Shown: positions 12,615 to 30,453, numbered from the stretch's first letter. The stretch is 64,000 bases of DNA from an uncultured Alphaproteobacteria bacterium (GCA_963831135.1 CAWHPH010000035.1:8704-72703), one strand, 5' to 3'. Made by a program: numbers and translations. Notes: generated by a model not told the origin, from the letters alone.

Positions 12615-12689
12615 TGGAGCGGGCGATGGGAATCGAACCCACGACACTCAGCTTGGGAAGCTGATGTTCTACCACTGAACTACGCCCGC
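12615..12689 (-). tRNA. tRNA-Gly (anticodon CCC), CCA encoded
   Basis: Hand-folded sequence: GCGGGCGTAGTTCAGTGGTAGAACATCAGCTTCCCAAGCTGAGTGTCGTGGGTTCGATTCCCATCGCCCGCTCCA. 7-bp acceptor stem, anticodon loop TTCCCAA, T-loop TTCGATT. Confidence 0.93.
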
Positions 12690-12691
12690 AT
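12650..12691. repeat. att direct repeat copy 1 (tRNA-Gly nt 1-40 plus 2 upstream nt)
   Basis: agcttgggaagctgatgttctaccactgaactacgcccgcat is identical over 42/42 nt to 30412..30453. Confidence 0.9.
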
Positions 12692-12780: not shown

Positions 12781-13081
12781 GAAATCCGCCGACACTATAT
12801 TATGGGCAGCGGGAAGCGCCAACTCCCCGCCGCGTATGGCCCGGCGCTCGCGCCGGGCCATTTTCATTTTGGACTTGACCGGCTTTTTAAGCTGGTCAAT
12901 TCGCCCGTAAGTTATTGCGGCGAAGTTGCAAACCCCTTCCCGAACCTCCACAGAGATAACCACGGTTGCGTCGGCGACTCGCGCGGGTGTATGAAAGATG
13001 CACCGTAGCGGCCCGCGTGCGCTCCTAACTGAGACACGCATTCCCCGCGACAGTCCCCACCGATCAGATAACCGAACGAGC

Positions 13082-13141
13082 GGCACTACATACGTTTTGT
13101 AGTGCCGGGGACGAGCCGCGCTACATCCGTTTTGTAGCGCG
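13082..13141. promoter_or_regulatory. two related 25-bp palindromes (putative operators) upstream of the Xis-like gene
   Basis: GGCACTACAtacgttTTGTAGTGCC (13082-13106) and CGCGCTACAtccgttTTGTAGCGCG (13117-13141). Centres are 35 bp apart. The second ends 16 nt before the ATG at 13157. Confidence 0.6.
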
Positions 13142-13156
13142 GGTGCGGAGCACATC

Positions 13157-13357
13157 ATGCGCGAACAACGCTTGTGGCCGATTTGGCTTTCGATTTCCGA
13201 AGCGTCCCGCGCGCTCGGTATCGAACGCAAAATTCTCTACGGATGGGTTGTCCAAGGGATGCCGATCTACAAGTGCGGAGTTCGCCGCAAGGTGCTGGTC
13301 GAGGACCTTGTTCGGTACATCCGCGCAAATCTGAAAACAGTGGAGCGTAAGTCATGA
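13157..13357 (+). CDS. excisionase/MerR-like helix-turn-helix DNA-binding protein
   Basis: 66 aa. LSISEASRALGIERKILYGWVVQGMPIYKCG is typical of the Xis/AlpA-like HTH family. It sits at the element end opposite the integrase. Confidence 0.7.
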   Translation: MREQRLWPIWLSISEASRALGIERKILYGWVVQGMPIYKCGVRRKVLVEDLVRYIRANLKTVERKS

Positions 13358-13896
13358 GCCAACTTCCCAATTACGCCGCAGAGGGCCGGATCAAAGCAGT
13401 GTGCGCAGAGAACGGCGTTCTCGCCGATTGCCTTGACGACATCGCACTGCAATTCCGCGAAGGCAAGTTGAGCGAGGCCGAGCTTCCCGCGAAGATCAAA
13501 GAGTGGAAGGCAACGCCCGATCATCATTACTTTCATCGCGGCGAAGGGGACGACAAAGAGCTTTTCGTTCGAGCGTTCGGCGAGTCGCCGTCGCTTCAAG
13601 CCAAGGGCGAAGTGTTCAAGAAGTACGGAGCGGCACGCGCGGCGGAAGTCGCTGCGCAGTTCGGGAACACGATCACCGAACTCAAGGCGGGCAAGACGCC
13701 CGACAGTTTCAAGACGAACGGCAACGGCGGCGATCACTCCGCTAACCCGTTCACTCGACTCCGCGTGAACGGAAAGATCAACGAAGCCGCAGCGGCCGAA
13801 GTCGCAAAGATGACCAAGGCGCTCGGCACCAAAAAAGTAGAAGCCATCGCACGCGCGGCCGGGATGACAATCACCGGCTTGCCGTTGCGGGCTTAA
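13354..13896 (+). CDS. hypothetical protein
   Basis: 180-aa ORF with an ATGA overlap onto the upstream gene. Confidence 0.55.
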   Translation: MSQLPNYAAEGRIKAVCAENGVLADCLDDIALQFREGKLSEAELPAKIKEWKATPDHHYFHRGEGDDKELFVRAFGESPSLQAKGEVFKKYGAARAAEVAAQFGNTITELKAGKTPDSFKTNGNGGDHSANPFTRLRVNGKINEAAAAEVAKMTKALGTKKVEAIARAAGMTITGLPLRA

Positions 13897-13908
13897 GGGG
13901 AGGCTCGA

Positions 13909-14271
13909 ATGGATAGTCGCACCAAAGAACATCTGCAATCGCAGGACACGGACATCGCTCGGCGTTCGAGCGTGCCTAAGCGGCATGTCCTCGTCACGCA
14001 CCCCGGCATGGCTTCGCAGACGCGCGGCACGCTTGGCGGACCAACACAAGGCAACCCACCGGACGCCTCGTCCCCGTCGCCGACTGATCCGTCGCGGCAG
14101 GGCAAGAGCTTCGCCGTTCCTGCCATCACGCACGGCATGTCGAGTCGTTCTGATCGCGGTCACTACGATCCGTCGTTCGCGCACGCGATCTTTTCTGAGG
14201 CCAGCCGCGACGTGACCGACTTCGCGCGGGACCTTCACACGGCTTTGCCGGGTGCAGGCAAAGAGGACTAA
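13909..14271 (+). CDS. hypothetical protein (low complexity)
   Basis: 120-aa ORF in the same operon orientation. Confidence 0.4.
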   Translation: MDSRTKEHLQSQDTDIARRSSVPKRHVLVTHPGMASQTRGTLGGPTQGNPPDASSPSPTDPSRQGKSFAVPAITHGMSSRSDRGHYDPSFAHAIFSEASRDVTDFARDLHTALPGAGKED

Positions 14272-14276
14272 CGACC

Positions 14277-14495
14277 ATGCGCGGCGAAATCAAATTCTTC
14301 GACGACAAACGCGGGTTCGGTTTCATCAAGATCGCGGGCGAGCAAAAAGATTTGTTCGTTCACATCACTGCCATTGAGAACGGGCCGCCGTTCACGGGCG
14401 ACATGGTGGAATTCGACATGGGGAACAACAAGCGCACCGGCAAGCAAGAGGCGCACAACGTCAAACTTGTAGGAGGGGGCAGTGGGAGCACCTAA
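14277..14495 (+). CDS. cold-shock domain (CspA-like) protein
   Basis: GEIKFFDDKRGFGFIKIAGEQKDLFVHITAI matches the RNP1/RNP2 layout of cold-shock domains. Confidence 0.85.
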   Translation: MRGEIKFFDDKRGFGFIKIAGEQKDLFVHITAIENGPPFTGDMVEFDMGNNKRTGKQEAHNVKLVGGGSGST

Positions 14496-14826
14496 TCAAC
14501 CACGCGACTCGCACGGCAGATGGGCCGCCGGAAATTCGGGTTCGTCTGCATCGGGCGACCATCAATCCGTGTCGCCGAGCCTCACTCACCGCAACGTCTC
14601 TGGCATCGCGGTGCCGCGCTCCATTCCTGTTGTTCGTCTCGACAACAAGGGAAGCCCGGACGTTAAGTCGTTCAAGGGTTCGGCACGATCAGACAAGATC
14701 GCGGCACTACGCGCCGTCGATCAGCGACACTTCGGAATTCCGGGTGATGTGGGAAATCGAGTCGGCAAGATGTTGCCCAAAGACCTACGCGGACCATCCA
14801 AGGCGGGATGGCCTTTCAACAATTGA
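14482..14826 (+). CDS. hypothetical protein
   Basis: 114-aa ORF with a 14-nt overlap onto csp. Contains NQPRDSHGRWAAG, a motif common in phage proteins. Confidence 0.45.
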   Translation: MGAPNQPRDSHGRWAAGNSGSSASGDHQSVSPSLTHRNVSGIAVPRSIPVVRLDNKGSPDVKSFKGSARSDKIAALRAVDQRHFGIPGDVGNRVGKMLPKDLRGPSKAGWPFNN

Positions 14827-14842
14827 ACCACAGGAGGCTCAC

Positions 14843-15337
14843 ATGGCCGTACAGACTGGAACTGGAAAGAAGCCGAAGCCGCCGGGCGCACCGGCTACGC
14901 TTAAGCAGGGCACGCGCCCGGCTGGCGAGACCTACAAGTCCGACTTGACCAAGGGCAATCTCGCCCGTGGTGGACTCGGACCTGTACGCAAGGACCCGAT
15001 CACGGGCGCGGAAGTCGCGCGCACCGGCTACGGTCAAAACGCATTCTCCGGCGCGTCAAGTTCGGGAGTCGAGGAAAGCTCCAAGCTGTCCGACTTCGAC
15101 ATCACGGTGGATGATCCGGCACTCGACAAGCTGGTCAAGCAAGGCATCGGCTCAAAGGTGAACGATGCCGATCAGGAAATGGTCGGACAAGAGCGGCCGG
15201 TCAGCGACGAACCGATCACACCGTCCTACGGCATGAAGTCGCCGAACATGAAGGCGGGCAGCTATGGAACGCTACCAGCAAAAGGACAGGGCACGTCAAC
15301 GGTCGCAACGGCGCAGCCGGTTCGTAAGCCGAGCTAA
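14843..15337 (+). CDS. hypothetical, probably disordered protein
   Basis: The internal ATG of ORF 14630..15337 is preceded by CAGGAGG. Confidence 0.5.
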   Translation: MAVQTGTGKKPKPPGAPATLKQGTRPAGETYKSDLTKGNLARGGLGPVRKDPITGAEVARTGYGQNAFSGASSSGVEESSKLSDFDITVDDPALDKLVKQGIGSKVNDADQEMVGQERPVSDEPITPSYGMKSPNMKAGSYGTLPAKGQGTSTVATAQPVRKPS

Positions 15338-15395
15338 CGTCACGGTCGGGCCGTTCACAGCAACGGCTCGGCGCTTGACCGATCTAAGTCTCGCC

Positions 15396-15539
15396 ATGGT
15401 CATTCCGTGGCGTGACTACAGCCAAGTCGGCATGACAACCGGCTGGCCGCAGTGGTGGATGAATGACGAGAACGAGTCGGAACGGATGCAAGAGATTTTG
15501 GACGCAACAGAGGACGAGGTTCTGCCATGGGAAATGTAG
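15396..15539 (+). CDS. hypothetical small protein
   Basis: Part of ORF 15264..15539. The start choice is uncertain. Confidence 0.3.
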   Translation: MVIPWRDYSQVGMTTGWPQWWMNDENESERMQEILDATEDEVLPWEM

Positions 15540-15844
15540 ACCTGTTTGATGCTCACAACCGACTCAACTTTCCGACTGACGAGGCTGTCGCTTCGATGCC
15601 GCCGGAAGTGCAAGAGCGGTTCAAGCCGGTTCGAGACGCGAAGGCCGTTCTCGATGCCGCGACCAAACACCGGGAGTCGGTAGCGCAGCGCATCGCGGCG
15701 AACGACGCCGAGCGCGCGACGACAACGGAGCAAATGAACATGATGCGCCCGAGTGGTACGGACGCGGATCGAACCCGCAACATCAAGGCGCACATCGCAA
15801 GCGAACAGCGTCAGAGACAACTCGAAAGAGGACTACCGGAATAA
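15527..15844 (+). CDS. hypothetical protein
   Basis: 105-aa ORF followed by a CCCCCG-N10-CGGGGG hairpin (15851-15872). Confidence 0.5.
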   Translation: MGNVDLFDAHNRLNFPTDEAVASMPPEVQERFKPVRDAKAVLDAATKHRESVAQRIAANDAERATTTEQMNMMRPSGTDADRTRNIKAHIASEQRQRQLERGLPE

Positions 15845-16053
15845 AAAGCTCCCCCGTTGTCATGAGCGGGGGTCTCGGCGGCGTGGACCACAGACACGCC
15901 CGCTACCGGCCGGGCGGCGGTCATCCTCCCGCCGTCCGGTCACCTTTCAAGGTTCGTCCGCTCCTGCACTCTACTGCCAGCGGGGGACGGCGGACGGAGC
16001 GGCCCGAGTATCTCTCCCTGAGTGCTCGGGCCGACCAAATAACGGAGTGAGCC

Positions 16054-16362
16054 ATGAGCGTGCACGATGTAATGCCACCGAAGCCGAAGGCCAAGAAGCC
16101 GGAGCCGTTCAACGTGCGCGCTGGTCGAATTCCGGTGCTCGATCACAAGAAGATCATGCGCGGTCATGTTGGGCCGAAGGCCACCGAAGCGACGTTGCCC
16201 CGGTTCGGAGTCAAGCACGGCGGCTCGTTGCAGACGGTGCAGGGTCGTCAGTGTTGGGTCGGTAACGAGCCGCTCGCCGTCGTCAGTGCAGAAGGCACGA
16301 ACCCGAACGCCGAGCTTCCACCGGCTCCCCCTCCACCGTCGAAACTCAAGGGCCAGTCATGA
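16054..16362 (+). CDS. hypothetical protein
   Basis: 102-aa ORF with GGAG upstream of the ATG. Confidence 0.5.
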   Translation: MSVHDVMPPKPKAKKPEPFNVRAGRIPVLDHKKIMRGHVGPKATEATLPRFGVKHGGSLQTVQGRQCWVGNEPLAVVSAEGTNPNAELPPAPPPPSKLKGQS

Positions 16363-17258
16363 GAAATCTAAAGGGCAAGGAATTCGAGGCCAAGCTCGCC
16401 GAAATTCTTGACACCGTTTCGCAGGACCCGGCGATGGAGCGCGCTATGCGATTGGCTGGCTACAGCCCAAAGATGATTTGGCTTTGGCTCAAGCGCAGCG
16501 GCGAAGGCGATACTAAGTATTTGGTCGCGTGGCCCGACAAGAAGGCGCGGAAAATCCAATTCTGCGATGCCGTTGTTCTCGCGCGCCGATTGCACAAAGT
16601 AAAAATGGACGCAACCATTCGCTCGGCCTGCGATGTCGGAATTCCCGAAGTTCAAATGCACGATGGTGCCGTTCTCTATGAGAAAGATGCGGCGCTTCTC
16701 GCCGAGTGGGGAGACGACAAAGAAGCGGCCGAACGCATCGGCGGCGTAATCGACTTCCCGTACAAGCACATCATCAACGAGCAAGGCAAGCGTGAGCGAA
16801 TTCCGCTCGTCCTCTACCGGCCTGCACCGGCTGCGCTGCGCCAGCATGTCATCCGCTCGCTAATCCCGTCCGAATTCAACCCGCCTGAACATCGGGTGAC
16901 ATCAACCGAGCACAGCGGGTCGGTGCTGATCTTGAACGCGAACCATCCGCCTTACGCGAAGGATTATCAGGCACCGCCGAGTCCGATCAAACAAGACTTG
17001 CAACAGCGCCTCGCCGATCTACGAGCACGCGGCCCGGCGCACAAGCACGCGACCGATAAGAACGGACTCAAAACCATTCCGAAGATCGGCACTGGATCAG
17101 TCAGCAACGATCCGCCGGAGCGGAATGGATACGGCGCAGCGCCGCAGGTTGATGCCGATGGTCATATCGTAGGTGCGAAGGTGCAGCCGATGATTAACGG
17201 CCGCACGGGTCAGCCCGCGCCGGGAGGTTTCAGCGCACTTACAGGACGGCCGACATGA
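16359..17258 (+). CDS. hypothetical protein (possible HTH/small-terminase-like N-terminus, weak)
   Basis: 299-aa ORF with an ATGA overlap upstream. Confidence 0.5.
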   Translation: MRNLKGKEFEAKLAEILDTVSQDPAMERAMRLAGYSPKMIWLWLKRSGEGDTKYLVAWPDKKARKIQFCDAVVLARRLHKVKMDATIRSACDVGIPEVQMHDGAVLYEKDAALLAEWGDDKEAAERIGGVIDFPYKHIINEQGKRERIPLVLYRPAPAALRQHVIRSLIPSEFNPPEHRVTSTEHSGSVLILNANHPPYAKDYQAPPSPIKQDLQQRLADLRARGPAHKHATDKNGLKTIPKIGTGSVSNDPPERNGYGAAPQVDADGHIVGAKVQPMINGRTGQPAPGGFSALTGRPT

Positions 17259-17572
17259 CCGATTTTATTGACAAGCTCACGCACAGCGAACCCGAGGACG
17301 TGCAGCAAGTCGGCACGGTCAATGCGCTCGGCGTGCGCAAGGTCAACATGATGGCCGTTCCCGAGCGCGCCGTGAGCGCAGAGGACATCGAAGCGCGGGA
17401 ACAAGCATTTCTCGACGCACCACAATTCCCTATCCCCTTTTGGGATTTGGACGACGGCCCGGCGCTCGAACCTTTGATGACTCAGGACCACGCCTTGCTA
17501 CGCGCGGCAGGCATCACCGCAGAAGAATGGGAACAAATCGTTCTCGAAGATCAATTGGAGAAAAGCAAATGA
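17255..17572 (+). CDS. hypothetical protein
   Basis: 105-aa ORF with ATGA overlaps at both ends. Confidence 0.5.
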   Translation: MTDFIDKLTHSEPEDVQQVGTVNALGVRKVNMMAVPERAVSAEDIEAREQAFLDAPQFPIPFWDLDDGPALEPLMTQDHALLRAAGITAEEWEQIVLEDQLEKSK

Positions 17573-18270
17573 CAAATCCACTCCGTCAGCAAATGGTCGC
17601 ACGGGCCGTGCAGCAAACGCAGAACGGCAAGATGGCGATCACCCTTCGCAACGTCGCCATGTTCCTGCCGGGACCGACCGCGTTCGATCCGAAGCTCAAG
17701 GCGCAAGTGGACTTTGAGCTTGATGCCGAGGACTTGGCACCGTATCTGCCCGCGCCGACGCCAGCGGTGGAAACACCTTCGCTCGCCGAGCGCCTGGCCG
17801 ATGTGGAAATCGAATTCGTGCCGCCGACTCCGGTTGAGCCGCCGGAGGTTCGTTATCAGCGACTCCAAAACCGTATGCTCGAACTGGAACGCGAACGCGT
17901 CGATCTTCGCTTCACCTACGACACGGCGATCCGCGACGAAATCAACGCGCGCAATGAACTGGACAAGATCGCCCGCGTGTTCATGAACGGGTTTGTGCGG
18001 ATCAGCCCGGACGAGTTGCTTAAGCAACACGCGGCATCCGAAGCCGAGACGCGCCGCAAGATCGCGGCCGGAGAAATTCCGAAGCCGCACCGCGTCAACA
18101 CCGTGGGGCCGTCTGCGCTTGATCGCTACATGGCTGCGCAGCGCGGCGGCAATCCCGGCTTTGCTGGTCGCGGCTATGCGCGCGGCGCTCAGCCCGCCAA
18201 CAAGCGCCTCATGTTCGATCCGAAGGCATTGCCCGGCTCGGGCCTGCCACAACTCAAGGAACCCGTATGA
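17569..18270 (+). CDS. hypothetical protein with coiled-coil-like middle
   Basis: MTNPLRQQ start is coupled to the upstream stop. Confidence 0.5.
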   Translation: MTNPLRQQMVARAVQQTQNGKMAITLRNVAMFLPGPTAFDPKLKAQVDFELDAEDLAPYLPAPTPAVETPSLAERLADVEIEFVPPTPVEPPEVRYQRLQNRMLELERERVDLRFTYDTAIRDEINARNELDKIARVFMNGFVRISPDELLKQHAASEAETRRKIAAGEIPKPHRVNTVGPSALDRYMAAQRGGNPGFAGRGYARGAQPANKRLMFDPKALPGSGLPQLKEPV

Positions 18271-18339
18271 AGCTCCCGCATTACATCCGGCTTGTAATGC
18301 GGGTCATCTGGCGGATTTGGGTGATGGAGCACTTCCACC

Positions 18340-18564
18340 ATGAGCACCAACGTAAAGCAACCGAAACGGAGCCGGGCTAAGCCGCTCGTTGCCGATGTGT
18401 CGGACTCGGCGTGCTTCGATGATCTTCGGTGGAAGGCTGGCACCGCCTACGCGACGTTTGCGAAGGACGGTTCGCAGTACACCTACGACATGAGCCGCGC
18501 GGACTTCAAAGAATGGATGGACAACCCGCTCGGCGAATTCTTCAACGCGAACGTAAGAGACTGA
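18340..18564 (+). CDS. KTSC domain-containing protein
   Basis: ...FDDLRWKAGTAYATFAKDGSQYTYDMSRADFKEWMDNPLGEFFNANVR resembles the KTSC family. Confidence 0.6.
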   Translation: MSTNVKQPKRSRAKPLVADVSDSACFDDLRWKAGTAYATFAKDGSQYTYDMSRADFKEWMDNPLGEFFNANVRD

Positions 18565-18567
18565 CCG

Positions 18568-19017
18568 ATGTCACGCGGACCGTGGAAGGCAGAGACACAC
18601 GCCCGGCGCAACGGCGGCGACGGTCATGGCCCGCTGTCTAATGCGCAGCGGACGCCGAACGATCACGTTGAGCCATGGAAGGATAAGCGCAAGGAAGCTC
18701 GGGCAAAGGTGAAGGCCGAGCTTGATGCGCTGCGCAGTAGCATTCTGTGGAAGGTGGCGAGTCAGAACCGCAAAGAGGCGTTGGCGCGCCACGCGCCGCG
18801 CTACATCGGGCACCCTTGCATCAAACACGACAACGCCGAGCGGTACACGGTGACGGGTCACTGTGTCGTCTGCGCGCGGGAAATCAGAGACGAAGTGCGC
18901 GGCATCGCCGTTAAGCCGCGCCTTGATCGCAAGCTACGGCCGACAGTCGCGGCAATGCGCAAGCCGGTGATCGCCGTGAGCCGGGGCTTCGATGACGAAC
19001 GGGCAGAAGTGTCATGA
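18568..19017 (+). CDS. hypothetical protein with GxPCxxH...RYxxxGxCxxC motif
   Basis: 149-aa ORF containing IGHPCIKHDNAERYTVTGHCVVCAREI. Confidence 0.5.
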   Translation: MSRGPWKAETHARRNGGDGHGPLSNAQRTPNDHVEPWKDKRKEARAKVKAELDALRSSILWKVASQNRKEALARHAPRYIGHPCIKHDNAERYTVTGHCVVCAREIRDEVRGIAVKPRLDRKLRPTVAAMRKPVIAVSRGFDDERAEVS

Positions 19018-19319
19018 GCATGGAAACGGATGAACTGGAATTCGATTTGACGAAACGCCGATGCGAGCGCGAAGGCTTCTATCTCGGGCGTCACAAGAAT
19101 TTCGATCCTGCGATGGGCGGCGGCGACTTGTACCTGATGCCGAAACAGAAGTTCGGCGGCGAGCGCAATCCGTCGCTGTTGAGCTACGCGACCAGCGACC
19201 AAATTCATCGCTATCTGAATGACGCAATTTCTCGAAAAAGAACGGAAGCCGTTGCGCATCCGTCAGGCCGTCAGGTCGTCAGATCATCGGAGCTTGAAGT
19301 CATGAACAAACAAACCTAA
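19014..19319 (+). CDS. hypothetical protein
   Basis: 101-aa ORF with an ATGA overlap. Its 3' end contains a CGTCAGG repeat cluster. Confidence 0.5.
   Translation: MSMETDELEFDLTKRRCEREGFYLGRHKNFDPAMGGGDLYLMPKQKFGGERNPSLLSYATSDQIHRYLNDAISRKRTEAVAHPSGRQVVRSSELEVMNKQT
19252..19282 (+). repeat. CGTCAGG 8-bp-period repeat cluster 1
   Basis: ttgcgcatc-CGTCAGGc-CGTCAGGt-CGTCAGa. Confidence 0.8.
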
Positions 19320-19384
19320 ATGCGCAAAGCGGCCCCGTGACCAGCGGGACCGCTTCACTTGCAAGGTGTTAGGAGCACCGTGCC

Positions 19385-19873
19385 ATGCCTGTTAAGAACC
19401 CCGAGATAATTCGCGCGGAGTCCGCTGTCAAGCGTGAGCTTGATCGGCTGGAACTGGTTGAGCGCGTGCCCGCGTTGCAGCGTGAAGCCGCCCGCAGCAC
19501 CGGACGATATGCACTCGACGAACGCGGCTATCCATTGCCGGTGCTGATCCTGCCACGCCATCCTGCCGTGATCGCCTACGTCAACGAATGCGCTGCGCAA
19601 TCGTCAGGCCGTCAGGCTGTCAGCGATTTGTGCACCGCTCGTCGAAATCTCAAAGCCGCTCACATTAACTACAAAGAACGCGTGCTCTACAGAACGCGCC
19701 ATGATATACGCGAGTGGTCGGACGGTGGCCGGTTCGTTTCATTGTCCGCCATCATCGAAGCCCGAGCCGACGCGATGCACTGGCGCAAGGTCATCAACAA
19801 GTTGGAAGCGGCAGAGAAGATGGAACAACAGAGAAGATGGAATGCCGCGCGCCTGCGCGTCACGCCGATCTAA
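19385..19873 (+). CDS. hypothetical protein
   Basis: 162-aa ORF with AGGAG upstream. Contains a second CGTCAGG cluster. Confidence 0.5.
   Translation: MPVKNPEIIRAESAVKRELDRLELVERVPALQREAARSTGRYALDERGYPLPVLILPRHPAVIAYVNECAAQSSGRQAVSDLCTARRNLKAAHINYKERVLYRTRHDIREWSDGGRFVSLSAIIEARADAMHWRKVINKLEAAEKMEQQRRWNAARLRVTPI
19596..19624 (+). repeat. CGTCAGG repeat cluster 2
   Basis: gcgcaat-CGTCAGGc-CGTCAGGc-TGTCAG. Confidence 0.8.
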
Positions 19874-19885
19874 GGACGGTCCCCT

Positions 19886-21256
19886 ATGAGCACCACGGCC
19901 ACAAAGACGCCGGACAACTACTTTTGGATCATGTCCGAAAACCGTTTCATGTACGCGCCAACTCGTTCGCTTTTCGAGAAGTCGGCAGTCGTCAAACAAC
20001 TCGGCAAAGAAGATGCGACGCTAGTTGAGGACACCCGCGTCTGTTCTAACCTTTGCTGGATACCCGGCGCGGGCACGTTCGTCGCCGACATGGCAGTGAA
20101 TGAAGGCGAGCTAGAACCGTTCGCGGGAAACAATCTGTTCAACCTTTACAAGCCGCCGAAGCCGCTACGCGAAGATGCTGATCCGGCCAAGGCACAGTTC
20201 TGGCTCGACATCGGTTATACGATCTACCCCGATGATTTCGACCACATCCTCGATTGTATCGCCTTCAAGGTTCAAAATCCGGGCGAGAAGATCAACCACT
20301 GTATCGTGCTCGGCAGTCCGATGCAGGGCATCGGCAAGGATGCGATCCTATGGGCTACCAAGCGCGCCGTGGGCCGCGCGAATTGGCGCAGCAAGGGTGC
20401 GACCGCTGTGCTGACGGCAATCGAAAAGAACTTCACGCCGTTCCTGAAATCGACCATCCTGCAAATCAGCGAAGTGCACGAAATGGGCGACAAGCGGTTC
20501 GGCTTCTATGACTCCATCAAGGATTGGTGCGCGTCGCCGCCCGATATGTTGACCGTCGCCGACAAGAACATCCGGGAGCACCCGATCACGAACGCGGTGC
20601 TCCCGATCCTCACGACAAACCATCTGACTGACGGTCTCTTTATTCCGCCGGAAGATCGGCGCGTGTATCTCGCGTGGTCGCGTGCTCAACCGACCAAATT
20701 CAGCAAAGAGTTTTGGGACGCCTATTTTCTCCGGCTCAAGGGTGGCGACGATGAACACGTTGCAGCGTTTCTGCAAGCTCGGGACCTGTCGAAATTCTCG
20801 CCGGGCGAGCCGCCGATCAAGACTGAGGCATGGAAGCAAGCCGTCGCCGCGAACCGCGCGCCAGCCGATGCCGAGCTTAGCGACCTGCTAGATGCGATGG
20901 CAGACGATTGGGCGTTCGAGACGGGCGAACTTGGCTGCGCTCGTCCATTCGCTGTGACCCTCGATCAGATGCACCGGCATCCGCGTGCAACTCATGCGCT
21001 GCGCTTGCTGTTCGGTGATCGCGGCAAAGCTCGAACCGCTGCGCACCGGCTCGCTACGGCTCAGTTCGGCAGTTTCGACAATCCCGACCGCGCCGATGGT
21101 CTGTGGAAGATCAACGGCCGCGCTCAGACGGTCTATGCTTGGGCGGAATTGTCGCCGGGCGAGAAGATGAACGCCGTCGCCGAACTGATCCGCATCGTGA
21201 CCTTGCCGAACAAGGTCCGCACCGATGCCGAGCTTGTGAAAGAGGAATTCGAGTGA
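19886..21256 (+). CDS. SF3 helicase-like P-loop NTPase (DUF5906 / phage-plasmid primase C-terminal type)
   Basis: 456 aa. Walker A-like VLGSPMQGIGKD, Walker B-like STILQISEV, then TTNHLTD. The layout matches P4/D5-type replicative proteins as I recall them. Confidence 0.65.
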   Translation: MSTTATKTPDNYFWIMSENRFMYAPTRSLFEKSAVVKQLGKEDATLVEDTRVCSNLCWIPGAGTFVADMAVNEGELEPFAGNNLFNLYKPPKPLREDADPAKAQFWLDIGYTIYPDDFDHILDCIAFKVQNPGEKINHCIVLGSPMQGIGKDAILWATKRAVGRANWRSKGATAVLTAIEKNFTPFLKSTILQISEVHEMGDKRFGFYDSIKDWCASPPDMLTVADKNIREHPITNAVLPILTTNHLTDGLFIPPEDRRVYLAWSRAQPTKFSKEFWDAYFLRLKGGDDEHVAAFLQARDLSKFSPGEPPIKTEAWKQAVAANRAPADAELSDLLDAMADDWAFETGELGCARPFAVTLDQMHRHPRATHALRLLFGDRGKARTAAHRLATAQFGSFDNPDRADGLWKINGRAQTVYAWAELSPGEKMNAVAELIRIVTLPNKVRTDAELVKEEFE

Positions 21257-21477
21257 TGGCCGAAGTCGATATTGGCGGCGCAATGCTGTGGGGCGCATCG
21301 GCTCGGGAGTGGGGCCGCACGCTGGCCGACAACCCATATGCAGCCGCGCCGGGAACCTACACGCTGCACAAGGCATGGAAATACGGGTTCGAGCACGCGG
21401 CCGAAGTGCAGGCACAACACTTCGGTGATGACCCTGCCGAGTCGCACTATGACGATTTGCGCGAACGGCGTGGTTGA
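21256..21477 (+). CDS. hypothetical small protein
   Basis: The ATG overlaps the upstream TGA (GTGATGG). Confidence 0.45.
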   Translation: MAEVDIGGAMLWGASAREWGRTLADNPYAAAPGTYTLHKAWKYGFEHAAEVQAQHFGDDPAESHYDDLRERRG

Positions 21478-21554
21478 GTACCAGCGCGCGGCCGGACTCA
21501 CTGGCGGCCGTTTATAGGTCACTGCGCCCCGGCATTCCTTCACGATGTCGATTG

Positions 21555-21593
21555 CACGCCCGTCAGGCCGTCAGGTCGTCAGGCCCGTCAATG
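21555..21593 (+). repeat. CGTCAGG repeat cluster 3 (intergenic)
   Basis: gcacgcc-CGTCAGGc-CGTCAGGt-CGTCAGGcc-CGTCAATg. Confidence 0.8.
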
Positions 21594-21594
21594 A

Positions 21595-21783
21595 TTAATC
21601 CTCCCAATCGCCCGGCGTTTCGAGTAGCGCCCGCCGTTCGGCCTGTAGCTTGTCGCGGCGTCGGCGGAGATATTGCTGTTTGGATTGCGCGCCCCAATTA
21701 GACCACTCGATTGCGCGCTCTCTGTCGTCCACTTCGGCGAGCAAGGCGTCAAGCTCGGCGAGGGTGCGCGGGCGTTGGGCCAT
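21595..21783 (-). CDS. hypothetical small protein
   Basis: MAQRPRTLAELDALLAEVDD... is the only minus-strand ORF in this block. Confidence 0.4.
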   Translation of the reverse strand: MAQRPRTLAELDALLAEVDDRERAIEWSNWGAQSKQQYLRRRRDKLQAERRALLETPGDWED

Positions 21784-21931
21784 CCCGGCAGGATGACTCG
21801 CCGGGCTGCACAAGACGTTAACGGCCGGGCATTCGCGCCCGGCCGTGCCGTCAAAGTCCTATCGCGTCATTGACGGCGACAGCCGGGGCGTCGCCGTTCA
21901 TTTCGTCTGGTTCAAACTTCCGGGGCGCGGC

Positions 21932-22040
21932 TGTCGGTGGTGTCAGTGATGTCAGTGGTTTTCTTCCCTACCCCCCTTTATAATGACGCGAAGGTTAGTG
22001 GGGAGGTTAGAGACCACTGACACCACTGATAGCACTGACG
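21932..22040. repeat. 28-nt imperfect inverted repeat built of GTCAGTG units around a 53-nt spacer containing TATAAT
   Basis: Left arm tgtcggtggtgtcagtgatgtcagtggt. Reverse complement of the right arm cgtcagtgctatcagtggtgtcagtggt (23/28 identical by hand alignment). The spacer contains cctttataatgacg. Confidence 0.75.
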
Positions 22041-22607: not shown

Positions 22608-22680
22608 ACGGCTTTCGAGGCGACTCACGATCTTGTGATCCGCTGTTAACGGTTCATTAAGAGTTTGGCCCTACCGTTGG

Positions 22681-22700
22681 GCCGTCAGGGCGTCAATGCG
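22681..22700 (+). repeat. CGTCAGG repeat cluster 5
   Basis: gc-CGTCAGGg-CGTCAATgcg. Confidence 0.7.
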
Positions 22701-22779: not shown

Positions 22780-24120
22780 ATGGGCGCGAAAAGCCCCCGC
22801 GATGTGAAATGGTATCGCCGACTATCCCAACTGTTCGCCGCGTGCGGCAGCAAGGCCGGTGACGGCGCTGTCGCCAAGGCCAAGCTCGAAGAAATGCTGT
22901 CAGTCAACGGGCTGACGTGGAACGACCTTCCCGAGCTACTGGCCGAAGCCAAGCGAGTCATGTCGGGCGAGCAAGAGCCAACGCCGCACGCCGATCCCGC
23001 CAAGCCCGGCCAGAAGCCGCCGCGCGACCTTGACATCATCCAACAGGTAACCGGGTTGCTTGATGTCTATCTCGACATCAAAGAGCACGAACGACTGGTC
23101 GTAGCGTTGTGGGTTCTCCACACCTACCTCCACCATCAATTCTCAGAGACTCCGAGGTTGATGTTCATCAGCCCGGTGGAGGGCGAGGGCAAGACCACGG
23201 CGTTGAACGTTTTGAACAAGCTGATCTTCCCGAGCGTCAAGGCGGCGAGCTTCACGGCTCCGGCGCTGGCGGCAGTGATCGACCGGGATCATCCTACTCT
23301 ACTACTGGACGAGGGCCGCAACCTCGATCTACAGAACAACATGCTCATGCGCTCCATCATGCACTCGGGCCATGAGCGCGGCGGCGTGCGGGTCATCTTG
23401 CGCGGCGGACAGCCGACAAGGTTCGAGACGTTCGGCCCGCTGTGCATCACCGCAATCGAAGAACTGCCATCCTACGAACTAATGAGCCGGGCGATCATCA
23501 TCCGGCTGCGGCGCTCTACGCGAGACGACATCCGAAAGTTTCACGAAGAAGATACGAAGTATGACCTGATCTACGAGAACGTCCGCAAGTGGGCGAGTTG
23601 GGCGCATTACAATCTCGACCTGCGCAATGTCGATCCGAAACTGCCGAACTTGAAGAACCGCCGGAAGGATAATTGGCGACCGCTGATCGCCATCGCCGAT
23701 GCACTCAACTACGGCGACCCGGCGCGCGAAGCGATGCAGAAATTCGACGGCCGGTACGAGGAAGCTCCGGGAGTCCTGATCCTGCGCGACATCAAGTCGG
23801 TGTTCGGCGATACCCATGCGATGCACAGCAAGGCGCTGGCTGACGAACTACAGAAGATCGAAACGTCGCCATGGTTCGACTGGAAAGGCAAGGATGGTTC
23901 CTACCAGCCGCACCCGATCACGCCGAACGACATCGCCCGGCTACTGCGGCCGTTTCAGATAAGGCCGCGCTCGGTTGAAATCGGTAGCGTCAACCTCAAG
24001 GGCTATCACCGCGACGACTTCCGCGAAGCGTGGGCCGCATACTGCCCCGACGATGACGCCAAGCCGAGCAAGCCCGACACTGTGGTGCAGTTCCCGGCGA
24101 AGGCGAGGAAGCAGTCATGA
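22780..24120 (+). CDS. DUF3631 domain-containing protein
   Basis: 446 aa. RRKDNWRPLIAIADAL...LRDIKSVFGD...ITPNDIARLLRPFQIRPRSV...KGYHRDDFREAWAAY matches my recollection of DUF3631. Confidence 0.7.
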   Translation: MGAKSPRDVKWYRRLSQLFAACGSKAGDGAVAKAKLEEMLSVNGLTWNDLPELLAEAKRVMSGEQEPTPHADPAKPGQKPPRDLDIIQQVTGLLDVYLDIKEHERLVVALWVLHTYLHHQFSETPRLMFISPVEGEGKTTALNVLNKLIFPSVKAASFTAPALAAVIDRDHPTLLLDEGRNLDLQNNMLMRSIMHSGHERGGVRVILRGGQPTRFETFGPLCITAIEELPSYELMSRAIIIRLRRSTRDDIRKFHEEDTKYDLIYENVRKWASWAHYNLDLRNVDPKLPNLKNRRKDNWRPLIAIADALNYGDPAREAMQKFDGRYEEAPGVLILRDIKSVFGDTHAMHSKALADELQKIETSPWFDWKGKDGSYQPHPITPNDIARLLRPFQIRPRSVEIGSVNLKGYHRDDFREAWAAYCPDDDAKPSKPDTVVQFPAKARKQS

Positions 24121-24753: not shown

Positions 24754-25758
24754 TCACGACACCTTCCAGCCACGAAGTTTGTTCGCTTGGGCAACATACT
24801 TCGGGTTAGGTCGGTCGGACTTCGCTGGTGGAGAAATTAGAATTGGGCGAAGTGCGGAGCGAAATCTTGAAAGTCCAGCGGCTTTATTTTCCGTTTTAAG
24901 CGCAACGACCATCGGCTCGTTCACGTGGGTTTTGAAATCCTTGTCGAATGTCACAAGGGATTGATCGTAAGCCTTATGATGCAAGGCGCAAAGAGCCACA
25001 CCATTTGAGGTTCTGTCAGTGCTACCCTTTTCACCTACGGGAAGAATATGAGCGCCCTCAATCAATCTCAACTGGACTCCACACATTGCGCAACGGTGAG
25101 AATACACAGTTAGAACACGACGGCTAAAATCATTTGCGCGAACGGCCTTCCACGTCGAAACGAGTGCACGCTTGCGTTTTTCGGCAACGCCCGAGTCTAT
25201 TTCGCCTTCATCTACTGCATCAGGATCATCGCTAATACGCGATAGAACCTTAAACTCCCTTGGCACCCTTCCGCTGTCATGTAGGGCTTCGAGGTTCTCG
25301 ATGTATGTCCCCACGAAGTCCGGTCTAAATCCGATTGCGGTTTCACCGCTGGATTTTATCGACGGCGCGAAACCATTGAGAAGCGCCTTGCGCAGCGCCG
25401 CTTCGTTGATTTGTAGCGATGGTGACGAGCCTAGTGGGCCCAAGTGCTGGCGAATATCCCAACCGGCAAACACCCCAACATCATCCCACCAACCCAACAC
25501 CAAATTTCGCGTTCTCGCGTCTTTCTTAAATCGACTAACGCCTGTGACTTGTATTCGATACTCATTCGGGAGGCTTGTTCTACCACCGAACGTTATGTTC
25601 CAAATATAAACCTTGACGCGGTAGCGACGGTCATCTCGCCAGACACTGTAGTGCGCTGGATGTTTTGAACGCCCGGCGTGATAAAGCAAGCTCCAACCAC
25701 TAGCTTGCACCGCTTCTTCAAATTCTAGCAACAGCGCCTTTTTCGACAAGCGCGCCAT
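24754..25758 (-). CDS. HNH endonuclease with unassigned ~200-aa N-terminal domain
   Basis: HRCAMCGVQLRLIEGAHILPVGEKGSTDRTSNGVALCALHHKAYD is an HNH_2-type core. It is the last gene of the four-gene operon. Confidence 0.8.
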   Translation of the reverse strand: MARLSKKALLLEFEEAVQASGWSLLYHAGRSKHPAHYSVWRDDRRYRVKVYIWNITFGGRTSLPNEYRIQVTGVSRFKKDARTRNLVLGWWDDVGVFAGWDIRQHLGPLGSSPSLQINEAALRKALLNGFAPSIKSSGETAIGFRPDFVGTYIENLEALHDSGRVPREFKVLSRISDDPDAVDEGEIDSGVAEKRKRALVSTWKAVRANDFSRRVLTVYSHRCAMCGVQLRLIEGAHILPVGEKGSTDRTSNGVALCALHHKAYDQSLVTFDKDFKTHVNEPMVVALKTENKAAGLSRFRSALRPILISPPAKSDRPNPKYVAQANKLRGWKVS

Positions 25759-25764
25759 TGAGCT

Positions 25765-26889
25765 TCATCCCTTATATGGCATCGCCGCAAGCGACACGAC
25801 GTGCGAACCATTGTCGCGTTCGCCCTTAACTTCGCCCGCCTTAGTTTTTGTCTTTGACCCTCTAGTCACAATATGCTTTGGCCGCTTTTTTCCGCCGTCA
25901 GAGGGCAGCGGCTCGCCCTCGCCGTTCCAAAGCAAGCCCGGATGCGCGATACGATAGTAGCCGTCCGCGATCTTTGGGACTGGCTGTGGCTTCACATCCG
26001 CTCGTGATTTGAAGCGACCTAATGCGCCGTTGAGGTATTCCTCAACTAATTCAGAGCAGACCCATTTCCGGCCAAGCCGCTCGGCTACCTCTCCTGTGAC
26101 GCAACTGCCAGCGAAAGGGTCAAATACCTTATCGCCTGCATCCGTGAGCATACGGATGAAATATTCGGGCAACGCAGCCGGGAAGCGGGCAGGATGCGCC
26201 TTGATGCTTTTTTCTTGGCAATAGCGCAAATAAGCACTGTTGCTCTCCGTGTTGGGGACTGCGATGAGATTTGGAGGTATGGCCGCGCCATTGTTGATGG
26301 AAAATTTGCTACTAATGTCGTGTCCTGACGGGCGAAGCTTTGCCTTGTAGCCATTGACCAGCAACGTTTCCATGCTGGGGCTGTAGGGTTGAAGTACCCG
26401 CCGATTGCTGGCGCGCGGCCATTCGCTCTTGCTTAGCCACCAGACCGTATTGACAGCATCCTTTACGCGGATGCGGCGGATGTTTACCCATTCGGCTGGC
26501 GTGGGCAGCTTCGACGGGTTCCACCAGTAGAAATCTTGGGCAAGATGAAACCCAAATTCGTCGCACAGCATGATAAGCATTTTGAAGTGATACAAGCTGC
26601 GCACTGGTACGCCGGGCATCCACGCTCCGCCCAAATCAATCACGAGGCTGCCGCTAGTCTTGATAATCCGATGAAATTGTGTGGCGAACGCACGGAACCA
26701 TTCTAAGTATGCGTCCTCCCGAACGTTCCCGTATTCCTTCTTGCGTGTGAGTCCGAACGGGGGACTTGTCATTATTAGATCGACACTGTCAGCCTTCATG
26801 GTCCGCATCACTTCAAGACTATCCCCATGATAAATCTTGCCGTGCTTCGTCGCATGAAACACGCTTATGGAAGCTGGCTTCTTGGTCAT
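25765..26889 (-). CDS. beta-class N4/N6 DNA methyltransferase (SPPF motif, probably m4C)
   Basis: DLIMTSPPFG (motif IV) precedes VFDPFAGSCVTG (motif I), plus AHPARFP. ATGA overlap with the upstream gene. Confidence 0.85.
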   Translation of the reverse strand: MTKKPASISVFHATKHGKIYHGDSLEVMRTMKADSVDLIMTSPPFGLTRKKEYGNVREDAYLEWFRAFATQFHRIIKTSGSLVIDLGGAWMPGVPVRSLYHFKMLIMLCDEFGFHLAQDFYWWNPSKLPTPAEWVNIRRIRVKDAVNTVWWLSKSEWPRASNRRVLQPYSPSMETLLVNGYKAKLRPSGHDISSKFSINNGAAIPPNLIAVPNTESNSAYLRYCQEKSIKAHPARFPAALPEYFIRMLTDAGDKVFDPFAGSCVTGEVAERLGRKWVCSELVEEYLNGALGRFKSRADVKPQPVPKIADGYYRIAHPGLLWNGEGEPLPSDGGKKRPKHIVTRGSKTKTKAGEVKGERDNGSHVVSLAAMPYKG

Positions 26890-28289
26890 GATCCATCTCC
26901 CAAATCTATTTTCTTTAGGGTCATCGCGTGCTCAGCTTCCCTTCTAAACGCATCAACTAAGTAAGTTGCATTCGCGGTTATCGCCTCCAAGTCGGAGCGA
27001 TCAATCATTACGATTGCAAGGTTCGAGTCCGACATGATGCGGTTGGCATATCGGCGAGCCTCGCTCCCTATCTCGCCAGTCGTCACGATGACAATCACCG
27101 TGCTTTTGAGGAAATGAGTTAGCCCAACTTCCTTCGCAACGTCATCGAGTGAGACACGCGCAGTGTTTTTGCACTGAACCTGCCAGCGCGAATAGACGAG
27201 GCGGGCGGATTGGAATATCAGGTCAATTTCAGCGCCGCCGGTAGAACTAGCGCGCAGTCTCGTGGCAACATAATCCATCGCAAGACTACGCATGAGCTTA
27301 AAGGCGAGAGCTTCAAGCGCTAAACCAGCGACATAGCGATCCTTCGACTTTATTTCAGTCAAAATATCGGCGAGCGGCTTCGTCAACAGAGCGAGAAGCT
27401 TGGGATCAACTTGATTTTTCAGTTGATCGAGCAATGGCCCAAGGATTTCGGTCTTGACCTTAGATGTTGGGGAGACAAGAAATGGCTTTGCCCCTCGACC
27501 GGTAGTCGTCTTGGTTGCATTGATGTAGCCCGCATCTTGCAGCGCGTTCAGCACTTCTTTTGGCAGGCTCTTATCCGGGAACCGCACGCCGTAAGTGGCA
27601 GCCGCCAGTCGCGCTATTTCATTCGCTGGCTGGGGTGTAGTTACGCCACTGTTCGCCAGCGCCAATAAGAACGCGCGCTGTTGTCTACTGAATTTGGCGA
27701 TTGCGGGAAATTCTTCGGGATCGACACCGAGCACGGCCCGAAGCCGAATGGGATCGACTTGCCAACGGCTCCCAACGATGACTCCTGCCTTGGCGAGCCA
27801 TAATCGCATCATGCTGGGATGCTTGCCGCCACGCGGAAAATGCACGCCACGCTCAGCTAATGCCTCTCGTAAGGTGTCCAGCGTGATTTCCTCACCCGCA
27901 GCGACCATATCTTGCAGACATTGCACGAACGTCATGCCCCGCAAATTCAGAAGAATGTGCCGAGCAAGTTCCTCGTAAAGTGCAGTCTCGTCGCCGCGCA
28001 GGCCGTGTAGTTTCAATCCGAAATCAGTGAAGCGCGCTTCACGATCTATGATGCCATAAGCAATCATCCCGAGCTTGCAATTGTTGGCGAGCTTTCCCCG
28101 GTTGTAGCTTTTGTGATCTTCGTCGGTGGGTGCCGCCGCATGTCCAGTGAAATACTTATCAAGGATCGCTGCTTCTAGCGCATGAGGGTCGCCTTGGTGC
28201 GCCTCCGTAATCTCCAGTAAGTCGGGCAGGCTGATCTGCGACGGCGAAAATTCGCTGCCGAATGGTAGATCGCTCCGTTGCGTCACCAT
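26886..28289 (-). CDS. Mrr-like (PD-(D/E)xK) restriction endonuclease domain protein with long unassigned N-terminal region
   Basis: Start chosen at MVTQRSDLPFGSEFSPSQ (28289), 14 nt after the RHH stop. C-terminus LEALAFKLMRSL...GGAEIDLIF...WQVQCKNT...VIVIVTTGEIGSEARRYA. Confidence 0.7.
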   Translation of the reverse strand: MVTQRSDLPFGSEFSPSQISLPDLLEITEAHQGDPHALEAAILDKYFTGHAAAPTDEDHKSYNRGKLANNCKLGMIAYGIIDREARFTDFGLKLHGLRGDETALYEELARHILLNLRGMTFVQCLQDMVAAGEEITLDTLREALAERGVHFPRGGKHPSMMRLWLAKAGVIVGSRWQVDPIRLRAVLGVDPEEFPAIAKFSRQQRAFLLALANSGVTTPQPANEIARLAAATYGVRFPDKSLPKEVLNALQDAGYINATKTTTGRGAKPFLVSPTSKVKTEILGPLLDQLKNQVDPKLLALLTKPLADILTEIKSKDRYVAGLALEALAFKLMRSLAMDYVATRLRASSTGGAEIDLIFQSARLVYSRWQVQCKNTARVSLDDVAKEVGLTHFLKSTVIVIVTTGEIGSEARRYANRIMSDSNLAIVMIDRSDLEAITANATYLVDAFRREAEHAMTLKKIDLGDGS

Positions 28290-28303
28290 GGCTGCGCTCG
28301 TCC

Positions 28304-28483
28304 CTAACCGCGCTCGTCTAGTGGGCGGGGAATATCTTTGAGGTACTGCTGAATTGCGCGCCGAATAACCCAAGCCGCCGATACGTCGTTTCTCTCCGCG
28401 AGTTGGCACACTTCAGAGTAGTCACCTTCGCCGAGGGTGACTGTTAGCCGAGCAGGCTGCTTGGCGCGCTTTGGTCGGCCCAT
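28304..28483 (-). CDS. ribbon-helix-helix (CopG-like) regulator
   Basis: MGRPKRAKQPARLTVTLGEGDYSEVCQLAERNDVSAAWVIRRAIQQYL shows the beta-alpha-alpha pattern. Confidence 0.7.
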   Translation of the reverse strand: MGRPKRAKQPARLTVTLGEGDYSEVCQLAERNDVSAAWVIRRAIQQYLKDIPRPLDERG

Positions 28484-28493
28484 GCGACTCACT

Positions 28494-28512
28494 GTGGTGC
28501 AGTTTTCACCAC
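28494..28512. promoter_or_regulatory. inverted repeat GTGGTG-N7-CACCAC just upstream of the RHH start (candidate operator)
   Basis: Read directly. It lies 11-29 nt upstream of the ATG at 28483 on the minus strand. Confidence 0.4.
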
Positions 28513-28999: not shown

Positions 29000-30291
29000 T
29001 CAGGCGGCTCGTTTCTTTTTCTCGGGGACTTGACCATGCAGGTAGGCCATCATCGTCTCGCTGATCCGGTGCTGCGCCTCAACGATCACGTCGCCGTTCT
29101 TCATCACCCAACGGATGATATACCTTTGCGACACGTTCTCGAACGCATGGCCCATGAGAAACTTCGACACGTCCGGGTCGATCCCGATACCGGCCGCCGT
29201 CGTCTTGAACGTCCTTCTCAACGCCATGCCGGTCGCAGGAAGATCGTCACGGCTCGCTTGAGTGCAGCCCGGCCAGATAAACGCATCATCGTGGCCGCGC
29301 TCGCCAACGAGCTTGATCGCGTCTCTGATCGCCGGGGTGAGCGGTACGGTGACGGTGTTCTTCATCTTCAGGTCGCCACCGCCAATTGTCAGTTCATCGT
29401 CGGTCAAGTCGCCCAACGAGTCCGCGCAAGCTCGCCCGGCCGGGCACCGACCAGCATGTTGACCAAGTGGAACGACTGCCGCACCGGCCGAAGCGCCTTC
29501 CACTTCTCATTCCAGCCGTGGAAGTCCGCCGGAGCCATACCTTTCTTCTCGCGCGCCTCAATGGCGAAGTCCACCGCAGCGGTCGGCAGGTTCACTTTCG
29601 ATAGTTTCAGGTCGCGGCGGGTGCGCTTCTTATACAGCGCGCGGACGATCCTCGCCGCATGGTTGCCGCTGACCGGCCCATGCTTCTTGACCATCAACGC
29701 GTGCCAGTCGGCGAAGGCGTCGGGCCGCTCGCTCATTTCGACGAGGGTCCAGTTCTTCCATTGCGGCAGGATGATTTGATTGCCCAAATGGCGGACGTTC
29801 TTGGCCCAACGCGCGGGCTTGCCACGCTTGGCGGCGAGTTGTTCGAGGTGCAGCAAATAGTCCTCGAACGCCTCGCCGAGCTTCACGCTGTCGCGTTTGC
29901 CTACGGGCAAAGTGCCAGTGATGGCCTTGGCGGCTTCGACTCGCGCCTTGTCACGCGCGGCGGCAACGTCAACGTGATCGTCGGCCCGCTGCAACGTCGG
30001 CTGCGGGCCGATGTATTCTCCGACCCGAGTGACGACAGGACCCGTGTCACGGCCGCCTACAACGGCGCTGGCGCGTCGGCCGCGATCATAGTGGCCCAAC
30101 GGCACGCAGGTGTAGATGCGCTTACCGTGGTCGCTGCGCTCGTTATAGAACTGCCATTGATGACGGACCTTGCCGAGCCGCAATTGCAGCCCTTTGATTT
30201 GACTGTCGCGCAGCAGCATCGGCTTGCCTTCGGCGAAGTCGATCAGGGCATCAACAAAGCCGTCGTGCAGGTCGGCGGTTCTCTTCTCCAT
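29000..30291 (-). pseudogene. tyrosine integrase with one frame break near 29400-29420
   Basis: ORF 29404..30291 (N-terminal/SAM-like part ...LVGARPGELARTRWA) and ORF 29000..29503 (...MALRRTFKTTAAGIGI...LMGHAFENVSQRYI) lie in different frames. Confidence 0.8.
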
Positions 30292-30411: not shown

Positions 30412-30453
30412 AGCTTGGGAAGCTGATGTTCTACCACTGAACTACGCCCGCAT
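30412..30453. repeat. att direct repeat copy 2 (orphan 5' half of tRNA-Gly)
   Basis: Identical 42-mer. The flanks differ on both sides. It lies 121 nt upstream of the minus-strand integrase start. Confidence 0.9.

Follow-up and report, generated by a model that had tools for sequence, protein, structure and literature searches.

We describe a four-gene operon in a 64,000-nucleotide stretch of DNA from an uncultured Alphaproteobacteria bacterium (GCA_963831135.1 CAWHPH010000035.1:8704-72703; hereafter the window), which encodes a ribbon-helix-helix (RHH) protein, a Mrr-type nuclease (G2), a DNA methyltransferase (MT) and an HNH nuclease (G4). Judging from gene neighbourhoods, the locus appears to be the union of two widespread two-gene cassettes, G2-MT and MT-G4, which draw on one methylase family. 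We regard it as fairly probable, though by no means certain, that it is a composite Type II restriction-modification (R-M) operon on an integrative island, with two alternative nucleases and an RHH controller. In any case it is an uncharacterised variant of a familiar R-M system and not a novel kind of defence. The initial annotation could not place this architecture; that view is not borne out, since the locus resolves into the two cassettes. No paper typing this gene set was found in the literature searched, which did not cover REBASE.

The locus has the features of a Type II R-M system: a stand-alone methyltransferase with intact motifs, and linked nuclease genes with invariant catalytic residues. 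Two samples of related loci bear on its origin. A scan with G2 at one genome per species gave 177 relatives, of which 80 loci were examined, and a further 80 metagenomic loci were seeded with G4 (41-63% identity). There were 50 loci with G2-MT without G4, 29 with MT-G4 without G2, 22 with MT-G4 on contigs too short to judge G2, and 17 G2-MT-G4 composites including the window and two near-identical contigs. Since either nuclease can be found elsewhere in a complete two-gene cassette with this methylase family, the window appears to carry both of the alternative nucleases. We looked for a conserved third or fourth partner gene in the loci with G2 alone or G4 alone, and none exists. The order G2-MT-G4 is a minority state (11/80 of the G2 genome loci and 3/80 of the G4 metagenome loci, the latter being the only ones of that set in which G2 is also present). 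It recurs on an 18.8-kb plasmid of Roseivivax marinus, where PGAP names the genes 'restriction endonuclease', 'site-specific DNA-methyltransferase' and 'HNH endonuclease'. With 15 such loci besides the window, the gene order is syntenic in other genomes and on a plasmid, a point on which the initial annotation had left room for doubt. The features of the window locus are as follows.

28494-28512, minus strand: inverted repeat GTGGTG-AAAACTG-CACCAC, read directly, putative operator of the RHH protein
28304-28483, minus strand: RHH gene, 59 aa, ATG at 28483-28481 and TAG stop ending at 28304
26886-28289, minus strand: G2, 467 aa, ATG at 28289
26985-27320, minus strand: Mrr_cat domain of G2, residues 324-435, core GGAEIDLIF...WQVQCKNT
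25765-26889, minus strand: MT, 374 aa
26755-26766, minus strand: SPPF catalytic motif of MT, residues 42-45, read in translation and aligned with the SPPF of M.PvuII
24754-25758, minus strand: G4, 334 aa
25300-25620, minus strand: MTaX1 domain of G4, residues 47-153, Pfam E = 8.1e-28
24943-25092, minus strand: HNH_2 core of G4, residues 223-272, Pfam E = 1.2e-10

The four open reading frames (ORFs) and their tight packing agree with the initial annotation. The RHH stop at 28304 is followed by the ATG of G2 at 28289, G2 and MT share an ATGA overlap of 4 nt at 26886-26889, and MT and G4 are separated by a 6-nt gap (25759-25764). Two further claims also hold: Pfam finds two unrelated nuclease folds, Mrr_cat and HNH_2, around a single methylase, and the stretch from 24.5 to 27.5 kb has a GC content of 0.51-0.55, lower than the flanks with about 0.59-0.62. 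The longest ORF of the second gene opens at a GTG at 28409; the 467-aa reading is the correct one because the N-termini of homologues align with the ATG at 28289. Promoter and terminator scanning of the operon gave sites no more numerous than in shuffled sequence; therefore nothing can be said from it on an internal methylase promoter.

By similarity, MT is assigned to the beta-class N4-cytosine methyltransferases of the M.PvuII family, in line with the earlier description of the third gene as a beta-class PF01555-type SPPF methylase. It matches Pfam N6_N4_Mtase (PF01555) above the gathering score (E = 3.2e-37), the PADLOC MTase_II model PDLC03323 (E = 7e-120) and the M.PvuII structure, PDB 1boo, over residues 12-314 (E = 2e-107). 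The catalytic and S-adenosylmethionine-binding motifs, SPPF and DPFAGSCVTG, are intact. MT and M.PvuII are 55% identical overall; the figure rises to 61% for M.PvuII residues 114-235, which we assume to hold the target-recognition region. Because of this full-length likeness, MT probably makes N4-methylcytosine (m4C) at CAGCTG, an assignment made from identity alone.

More than 2,400 proteins are homologous to G2, and identity in the top 120 is 71-100%. The C-terminal Mrr/PD-(D/E)xK-like core of G2, which follows an N-terminal region of about 320 aa and was proposed from the sequence at the outset, was confirmed by a Pfam Mrr_cat match above the gathering score (E = 5.3e-10). All of 14 homologues with 71-82% identity retain residues E354, D356, Q370, Q372 and K374, so that G2 does not lack catalytic residues, as had been considered. 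The 80 G2 loci come from Alpha-, Beta- and Gammaproteobacteria (including a Klebsiella), Acidobacteriota, Chloroflexota, Planctomycetota, Cyanobacteria, Bacteroidota, Verrucomicrobiota and Omnitrophota. An M.PvuII-like methylase with 57-77% identity to the window MT is present in 78 of them, nearly always directly downstream of G2 on the same strand (upstream in 5 loci and more distant in 1), with a median gap of 9 nt from the G2 stop to the MT start. One of the two loci apparently without a methylase is a contig end. No other neighbour of G2-MT is conserved, the commonest family occurring in 6/50 loci. A PF01555 methylase comes next even after an archaeal G2 homologue with 29% identity, which lies on a Haloplanus plasmid. 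Because of this linkage, we conclude that G2 is, as far as gene context can tell, the cognate Type II nuclease, a modular restriction endonuclease rather than a solitary Mrr-type enzyme. The Mrr fold had been associated with modification-dependent restriction; this is not supported for G2, which is not solitary in the way of Type IV enzymes.

The AlphaFold2 model of G2 (pLDDT 76) is helical over residues 20-335 with winged-helix-like units, and has an alpha/beta nuclease domain at 339-460. Its best fold match in the PDB is the Type IIS-like nickase Nt.BspD6I (E = 7.5e-4), followed by PaqCI, MspJI and the winged helices of ORC/Cdc6 and PadR; the TM-scores lie at only about 0.2, which is not surprising for a model of several domains. 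PADLOC and NCBIfam scans gave G2 no named family, the sole hit being a weak one of the Mrr domain to PDC-M58A (E = 0.005), and G2 had no match in deposited phage genomes. Across phyla (L001-L080), G2 is 59-85% and MT 57-77% identical, which is unusually high for restriction genes and points to recent and frequent horizontal spread. Many G2 homologues (e.g. P0014, P0031, P0073 and P0116) are labelled 'site-specific DNA-methyltransferase (cytosine-N4-specific)' by JGI, with Mrr_cat as their sole Pfam domain; this label looks like an annotation carried over from the adjoining gene.

With regard to G4, the HNH core recognised at first was confirmed (HNH_2, PF13391; 41.5 bits vs a 21-bit cut-off), whereas the N-terminal domain that had been left unassigned already has a name in Pfam, MTaX1 or 'Methylase-associated X1' (PF20296; 97.6 bits vs a 25-bit cut-off). 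HNH_2 lies C-terminal of MTaX1. There are 1,348 G4 homologues, and all of the 120 listed bear both domains. The zinc and catalytic residues of the HNH domain, C223, C226, H237, N252, C257, H260 and H261, are invariant in 36 homologues. In the AlphaFold2 model (pLDDT 82), a long helical linker joins an N-terminal alpha/beta domain to the HNH domain. The best Foldseek matches of MTaX1 are the SPARDA nuclease domain (DREN), I-Ssp6803I and Hjc, with probability 0.99 and weak E values of 6e-3 to 1e-2. The positions expected for the classical D...(D/E)xK motif vary in the alignment of homologues (A2); the invariant residues of the domain are W53, G58, G59, E66, R68, Q70, T72, D101, H105, S112, S114 and Q116. 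From the model, MTaX1 is probably a degenerate restriction-endonuclease fold for recognition of DNA or its methylation state. With 425 clusters at 50% identity in a set of 1.84 billion representatives, the family is a small one, and most of its proteins are about 333 aa. MTaX1 is always N-terminal, and rare members are fused to GmrSD_N (DUF262) or to an AAA_21/AAA_15 ATPase (P0282, P0336 and P0317 among the cases). Aravind and co-workers observed the domain in methylase-containing neighbourhoods of Dnd/Pbe and R-M type, and it is 'also found in several R-M systems' (PMC10853773). In deposited phage genomes, G4 gave hits to HNH fragments only.

In most of the 80 metagenomic loci, those whose contigs extend upstream of G4, an M.PvuII-like methylase (51-82% identity) lies immediately upstream of G4. 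As a rule, G4 begins before MT has ended (median spacing -14 nt), and the 29 MT-G4 loci without G2 share no conserved third gene family. Neighbour-joining trees of MT and G4 have the same deep split and therefore indicate that G4 co-evolves with the methylase. One clade consists of MT-G4 cassettes alone; in the other, composites are interspersed with G2-type methylases. MT followed by G4 is most simply read as a two-gene Type II R-M system in its own right, as predicted from these gene contexts. In three MT-G4 loci (L093 2861-5850, L114 1979-5788 and L084 7003-10869), we also noticed a McrBC-like module on the opposite strand, i.e. an AAA_5 ATPase and partners of roughly 410-495 aa without a Pfam hit, situated between an RHH-fused methylase and G4 or just past G4.

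Taken as a composite Type II operon, the locus would work as follows. MT would mark the host's own sites, most likely CAGCTG, as m4C. G2 would be the primary cognate restriction enzyme, whose winged-helix-rich N-terminal region may recognise the unmethylated site and whose Mrr-type PD-(D/E)xK domain would cut. G4 would be another restriction enzyme, independent of G2 and likewise licensed by the mark that MT makes, with MTaX1 binding DNA and telling the unmethylated from the methylated target and the HNH domain cutting. The outcome would be a redundant but mechanistically different restriction of the same unmethylated sites. The composite most likely arose via recombination between cassettes through their homologous methylase genes.

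Several observations weigh against this interpretation. Regarding G2, no PADLOC restriction-enzyme model matches it, and PDB sequence searches with a single sequence and with a profile found no related solved structure. Regarding the specificity, the window holds 4 CAGCTG sites where shuffles predict 17.2 +/- 4.1, with none in positions 1-39362, which weakly favours this target; however, the depletion is unspecific, being shared by the majority of 6-bp palindromes, among which CAGCTG is 15th of 64. We therefore rejected CAGCTG avoidance as proof of specificity. Other depleted palindromes in the window include CCCGGG (3 observed vs 17.9 expected) and CTCGAG (11 vs 30.7).

The remaining difficulties concern G4 and bring in other explanations. 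Its HNH domain is closest to those of the Type IV enzymes TagI and VcaM4I: it aligns with the TagI HNH domain (E = 1.2e-6), the matches of a G4 profile in the PDB are confined to the HNH regions of these two proteins, and the NCBIfam PT-DNA restriction model matches it below its cut-off. Moreover, an MTaX1-GmrSD_N protein on a Hymenobacter plasmid (L168 5001-6566, NZ_CP095048.1) has no methylase nearby; its neighbours are HEPN, HNH and Z1 genes. These facts would suit a scheme in which G2 and MT are the real R-M pair and G4 is a Type IV-like, modification-dependent reader-HNH nuclease, MTaX1 reading foreign modification (hypermodified or differently methylated phage DNA) and so backing the Type II system up against evaders. 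On the other hand, G4 is the sole nuclease adjoining the methylase in at least 29 loci, where the two genes overlap or abut and no further partner is conserved, and G4 co-diverges with MT. Since a solitary-type enzyme would need no such strict methylase linkage, we think a Type IV-like role unlikely.

The closest relatives of the window G4 (61-62% identity) are found in two contexts without an M.PvuII-like methylase. In Bradyrhizobium-type loci (L085, L086 and L088, 1-6999), a ResIII helicase and a 1006-aa PF01555 methylase with an FDPPYG motif are followed by a G4 homologue of 61% identity, which abuts the methylase stop with zero gap; no M.PvuII-like methylase is present at the locus. Another close relative lies on a contig without such a methylase within 6 kb. 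These contexts are hard to reconcile with a fixed CAGCTG specificity of G4. They would be explained if G4 is a methylase-guided plug-in nuclease, in which MTaX1 docks on PF01555 methylases or senses their reaction state. The methylase would then be the DNA-specificity subunit, and one nuclease module could serve methylases of different specificity, including the Type III-like Mod of the Bradyrhizobium-type loci. The joining of MTaX1 to effectors as varied as HNH, GmrSD_N and AAA_21 fits this idea, and the co-phylogeny of MT and G4 fits a protein-protein interface as well as it fits a shared specificity. However, an interaction between MT and G4 is without direct evidence, the MTaX1 fold is nuclease- or DNA-binding-like, the Type III-like context is a single lineage, and MTaX1-GmrSD_N proteins occur without a neighbouring methylase. 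We consider the plug-in explanation quite unlikely. Both this and the Type IV-like role are rated below a plain R-M system because G4 is the sole methylase-adjoining nuclease in many loci. A broader version, that MTaX1-HNH is a portable methylase-licensed module which docks on PF01555 methylases or reads their mark instead of a fixed sequence, also seems unlikely to us. If true, it could be attached to Type II (M.PvuII-like) and Type III-like systems, and would give two-tier restriction from one mark by a sequence-specific Mrr-type enzyme and a methylase-guided HNH enzyme.

Finally, in a Terriglobia composite (L035 8518-9525), the G4 homologue, with 34% identity, falls into two ORFs, one of 195 and one of 134 aa, which suggests decay of the second nuclease at that locus. 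Composites may be recombination accidents, with one nuclease functional or expressed in the window and the other being lost. The rarity of composites accords with such an accident. In the MT tree they are dispersed over the G2-only loci, a pattern that repeated losses of G4 could produce; the integrase of the island described below is also frameshifted. But both nucleases of the window are full-length and keep all invariant catalytic residues, their genes are still tightly packed with a 4-nt overlap and a 6-nt gap, and composites persist over G4 identities of 34-60%. An accident on the way to loss is therefore, in our view, very unlikely, and we keep to the proposed composite Type II operon.

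The first gene of the operon encodes an RHH protein (MGRPKRAKQPARLTVTL...) that matches Pfam RHH_1 above the gathering score (E = 1.7e-6). Its homologues lie directly upstream of G2 in 26/80 loci. The inverted repeat, which had been suspected to be a controller-like operator, is present 10 nt upstream of the RHH ATG. Of 27 RHH loci (the window counted), 15 have the motif TGGTG-N7-CAYC within the 60 nt that precede the RHH start, though the surroundings have diverged, against a background of 0.0013 per 60 nt in the same loci. Because of this retention over a low background, the repeat is no chance match, and the phylogenetic footprint supports TGGTG-N7-CACCA as a putative operator for the RHH protein. 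By binding it over its own 5' region, the protein would autoregulate the operon. The layout is that of a C protein, with a small regulator gene heading the nuclease operon and a conserved palindrome upstream of its own start; the protein itself matches RHH_1 and not a helix-turn-helix (HTH) family, and so differs from the Xre-type HTH of C proteins. It is thus a putative controller in role, outside the HTH C-protein family.

We also searched the G4-only loci for the G2-type RHH; a hidden Markov model of the protein found it only in composites and in L117. In the latter, a short metagenome contig (1070-2142), an RHH gene of G2 type (55% identity) immediately precedes G4, and both G2 and MT are missing from the interval and from the 1 kb upstream. 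The G4-type cassettes of L084 and L093 have a different RHH, fused to the methylase N-terminus, with a NikA-like Pfam match in L093.

The operon is cargo of a 17.8-kb integrative island at a tRNA-Gly gene. The island is bracketed by a perfect 42-bp direct repeat, one copy at 12650-12691 within tRNA-Gly(CCC) (12615-12689, minus strand) and the other at 30412-30453, just beyond the integrase start. The repeat covers the 5' part of the tRNA gene; an attachment site at the tRNA 3' end was rejected for this reason. Between the repeats are an integrase (29000-30291, minus strand), the R-M operon, a DUF3631 protein and many small ORFs. The tyrosine-integrase-like gene is split into two overlapping ORFs near 29410 by a 1-nt deletion. 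In a metagenome contig (L081) that is 99.85% identical to the window, the integrase is intact, with 430 aa; the split in the window is either a real frameshift or an assembly indel. The DUF3631 protein (446 aa, 22780-24120, plus strand) and the small ORFs without Pfam hits over 13000-22000 suggest a satellite- or prophage-like element. In addition, the island contains four copies of a 38-nt repeat (19245-19282, 19586-19623, 21545-21582 and 22659-22696; core CGTCAGGCCGTCAGG(T/C)CGTCAG), which are 63-100% identical and may be regulatory or iteron-like sites.

Among known systems, the PvuII system (C.PvuII, R.PvuII and M.PvuII; CAGCTG) is similar to the window locus in its methylase, which is of the same family with about 55% identity, the SPPF motif and the beta-class order, and in the small DNA-binding regulator gene with an operator just upstream. 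It differs in that the window locus has no R.PvuII homologue and contains the two unrelated proteins G2 and G4 instead, in that the window regulator is an RHH protein whereas that of PvuII is a helix-turn-helix C protein, and in that the window genes are all co-oriented with the methylase in the middle. G2 resembles FokI, Nt.BspD6I and PaqCI in the predicted N-terminal helical/winged-helix region followed by a C-terminal PD-(D/E)xK domain, and SdaI is a further modular Type II enzyme of such a layout. However, these enzymes have no detectable sequence similarity to G2, whose cleavage domain belongs to Mrr_cat. Two methylation activities are commonly required in Type IIS systems, whereas the partner of G2 is a single methylase with an expected palindromic target. 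With E. coli Mrr and other Type IV Mrr_cat enzymes, G2 has in common the Mrr_cat domain with its D...QxK motif; Mrr is a solitary enzyme that cuts modified DNA, in contrast to the methylase-linked G2, and the N-terminal region of G2 is distinct and much longer.

Similarly, G4 is like TagI, VcaM4I and ScoMcrA-type enzymes in having a C-terminal HNH_2 domain after an N-terminal DNA-reading domain. The latter is MTaX1, of restriction-endonuclease-like fold, and not SRA, PUA or SBD. Moreover, G4 is strictly methylase-linked, which favours restriction of unmodified DNA. G4 is a clear member of the MTaX1 proteins (PF20296), for which the literature holds a domain-level prediction only; what appears to be new here, from genome comparison, is the pairing of MTaX1-HNH with M.PvuII-family methylases, both as a two-gene cassette and in a composite with G2. 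BbvCI and Bpu10I are examples of R-M systems with two restriction genes, the products being related subunits of one obligate heterodimer. There, too, more than one nuclease gene depends on the same modification; the nucleases of the window are, in contrast, of unrelated folds, and each stands alone with a methylase elsewhere.

These results tie two large and uncharacterised families of restriction enzymes, G2 and MTaX1-HNH (about 1,350 homologues), to one well-studied methylase family. Both nucleases are predicted to be blocked by m4C of the M.PvuII type, probably at CAGCTG. Neither family has a solved structure. Such loci are likely scored as orphan methylases or missed, as G2 matches no PADLOC restriction-enzyme model. 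Counting R.PvuII, three unrelated nucleases serve one methylase family, and composites of the type restriction-modification-restriction exist. The locus clearly illustrates how nucleases are exchanged and merged around a conserved methylase. If its nucleases are truly redundant, it would offer a natural test of whether a doubled nuclease makes restriction harder to evade or to lose.

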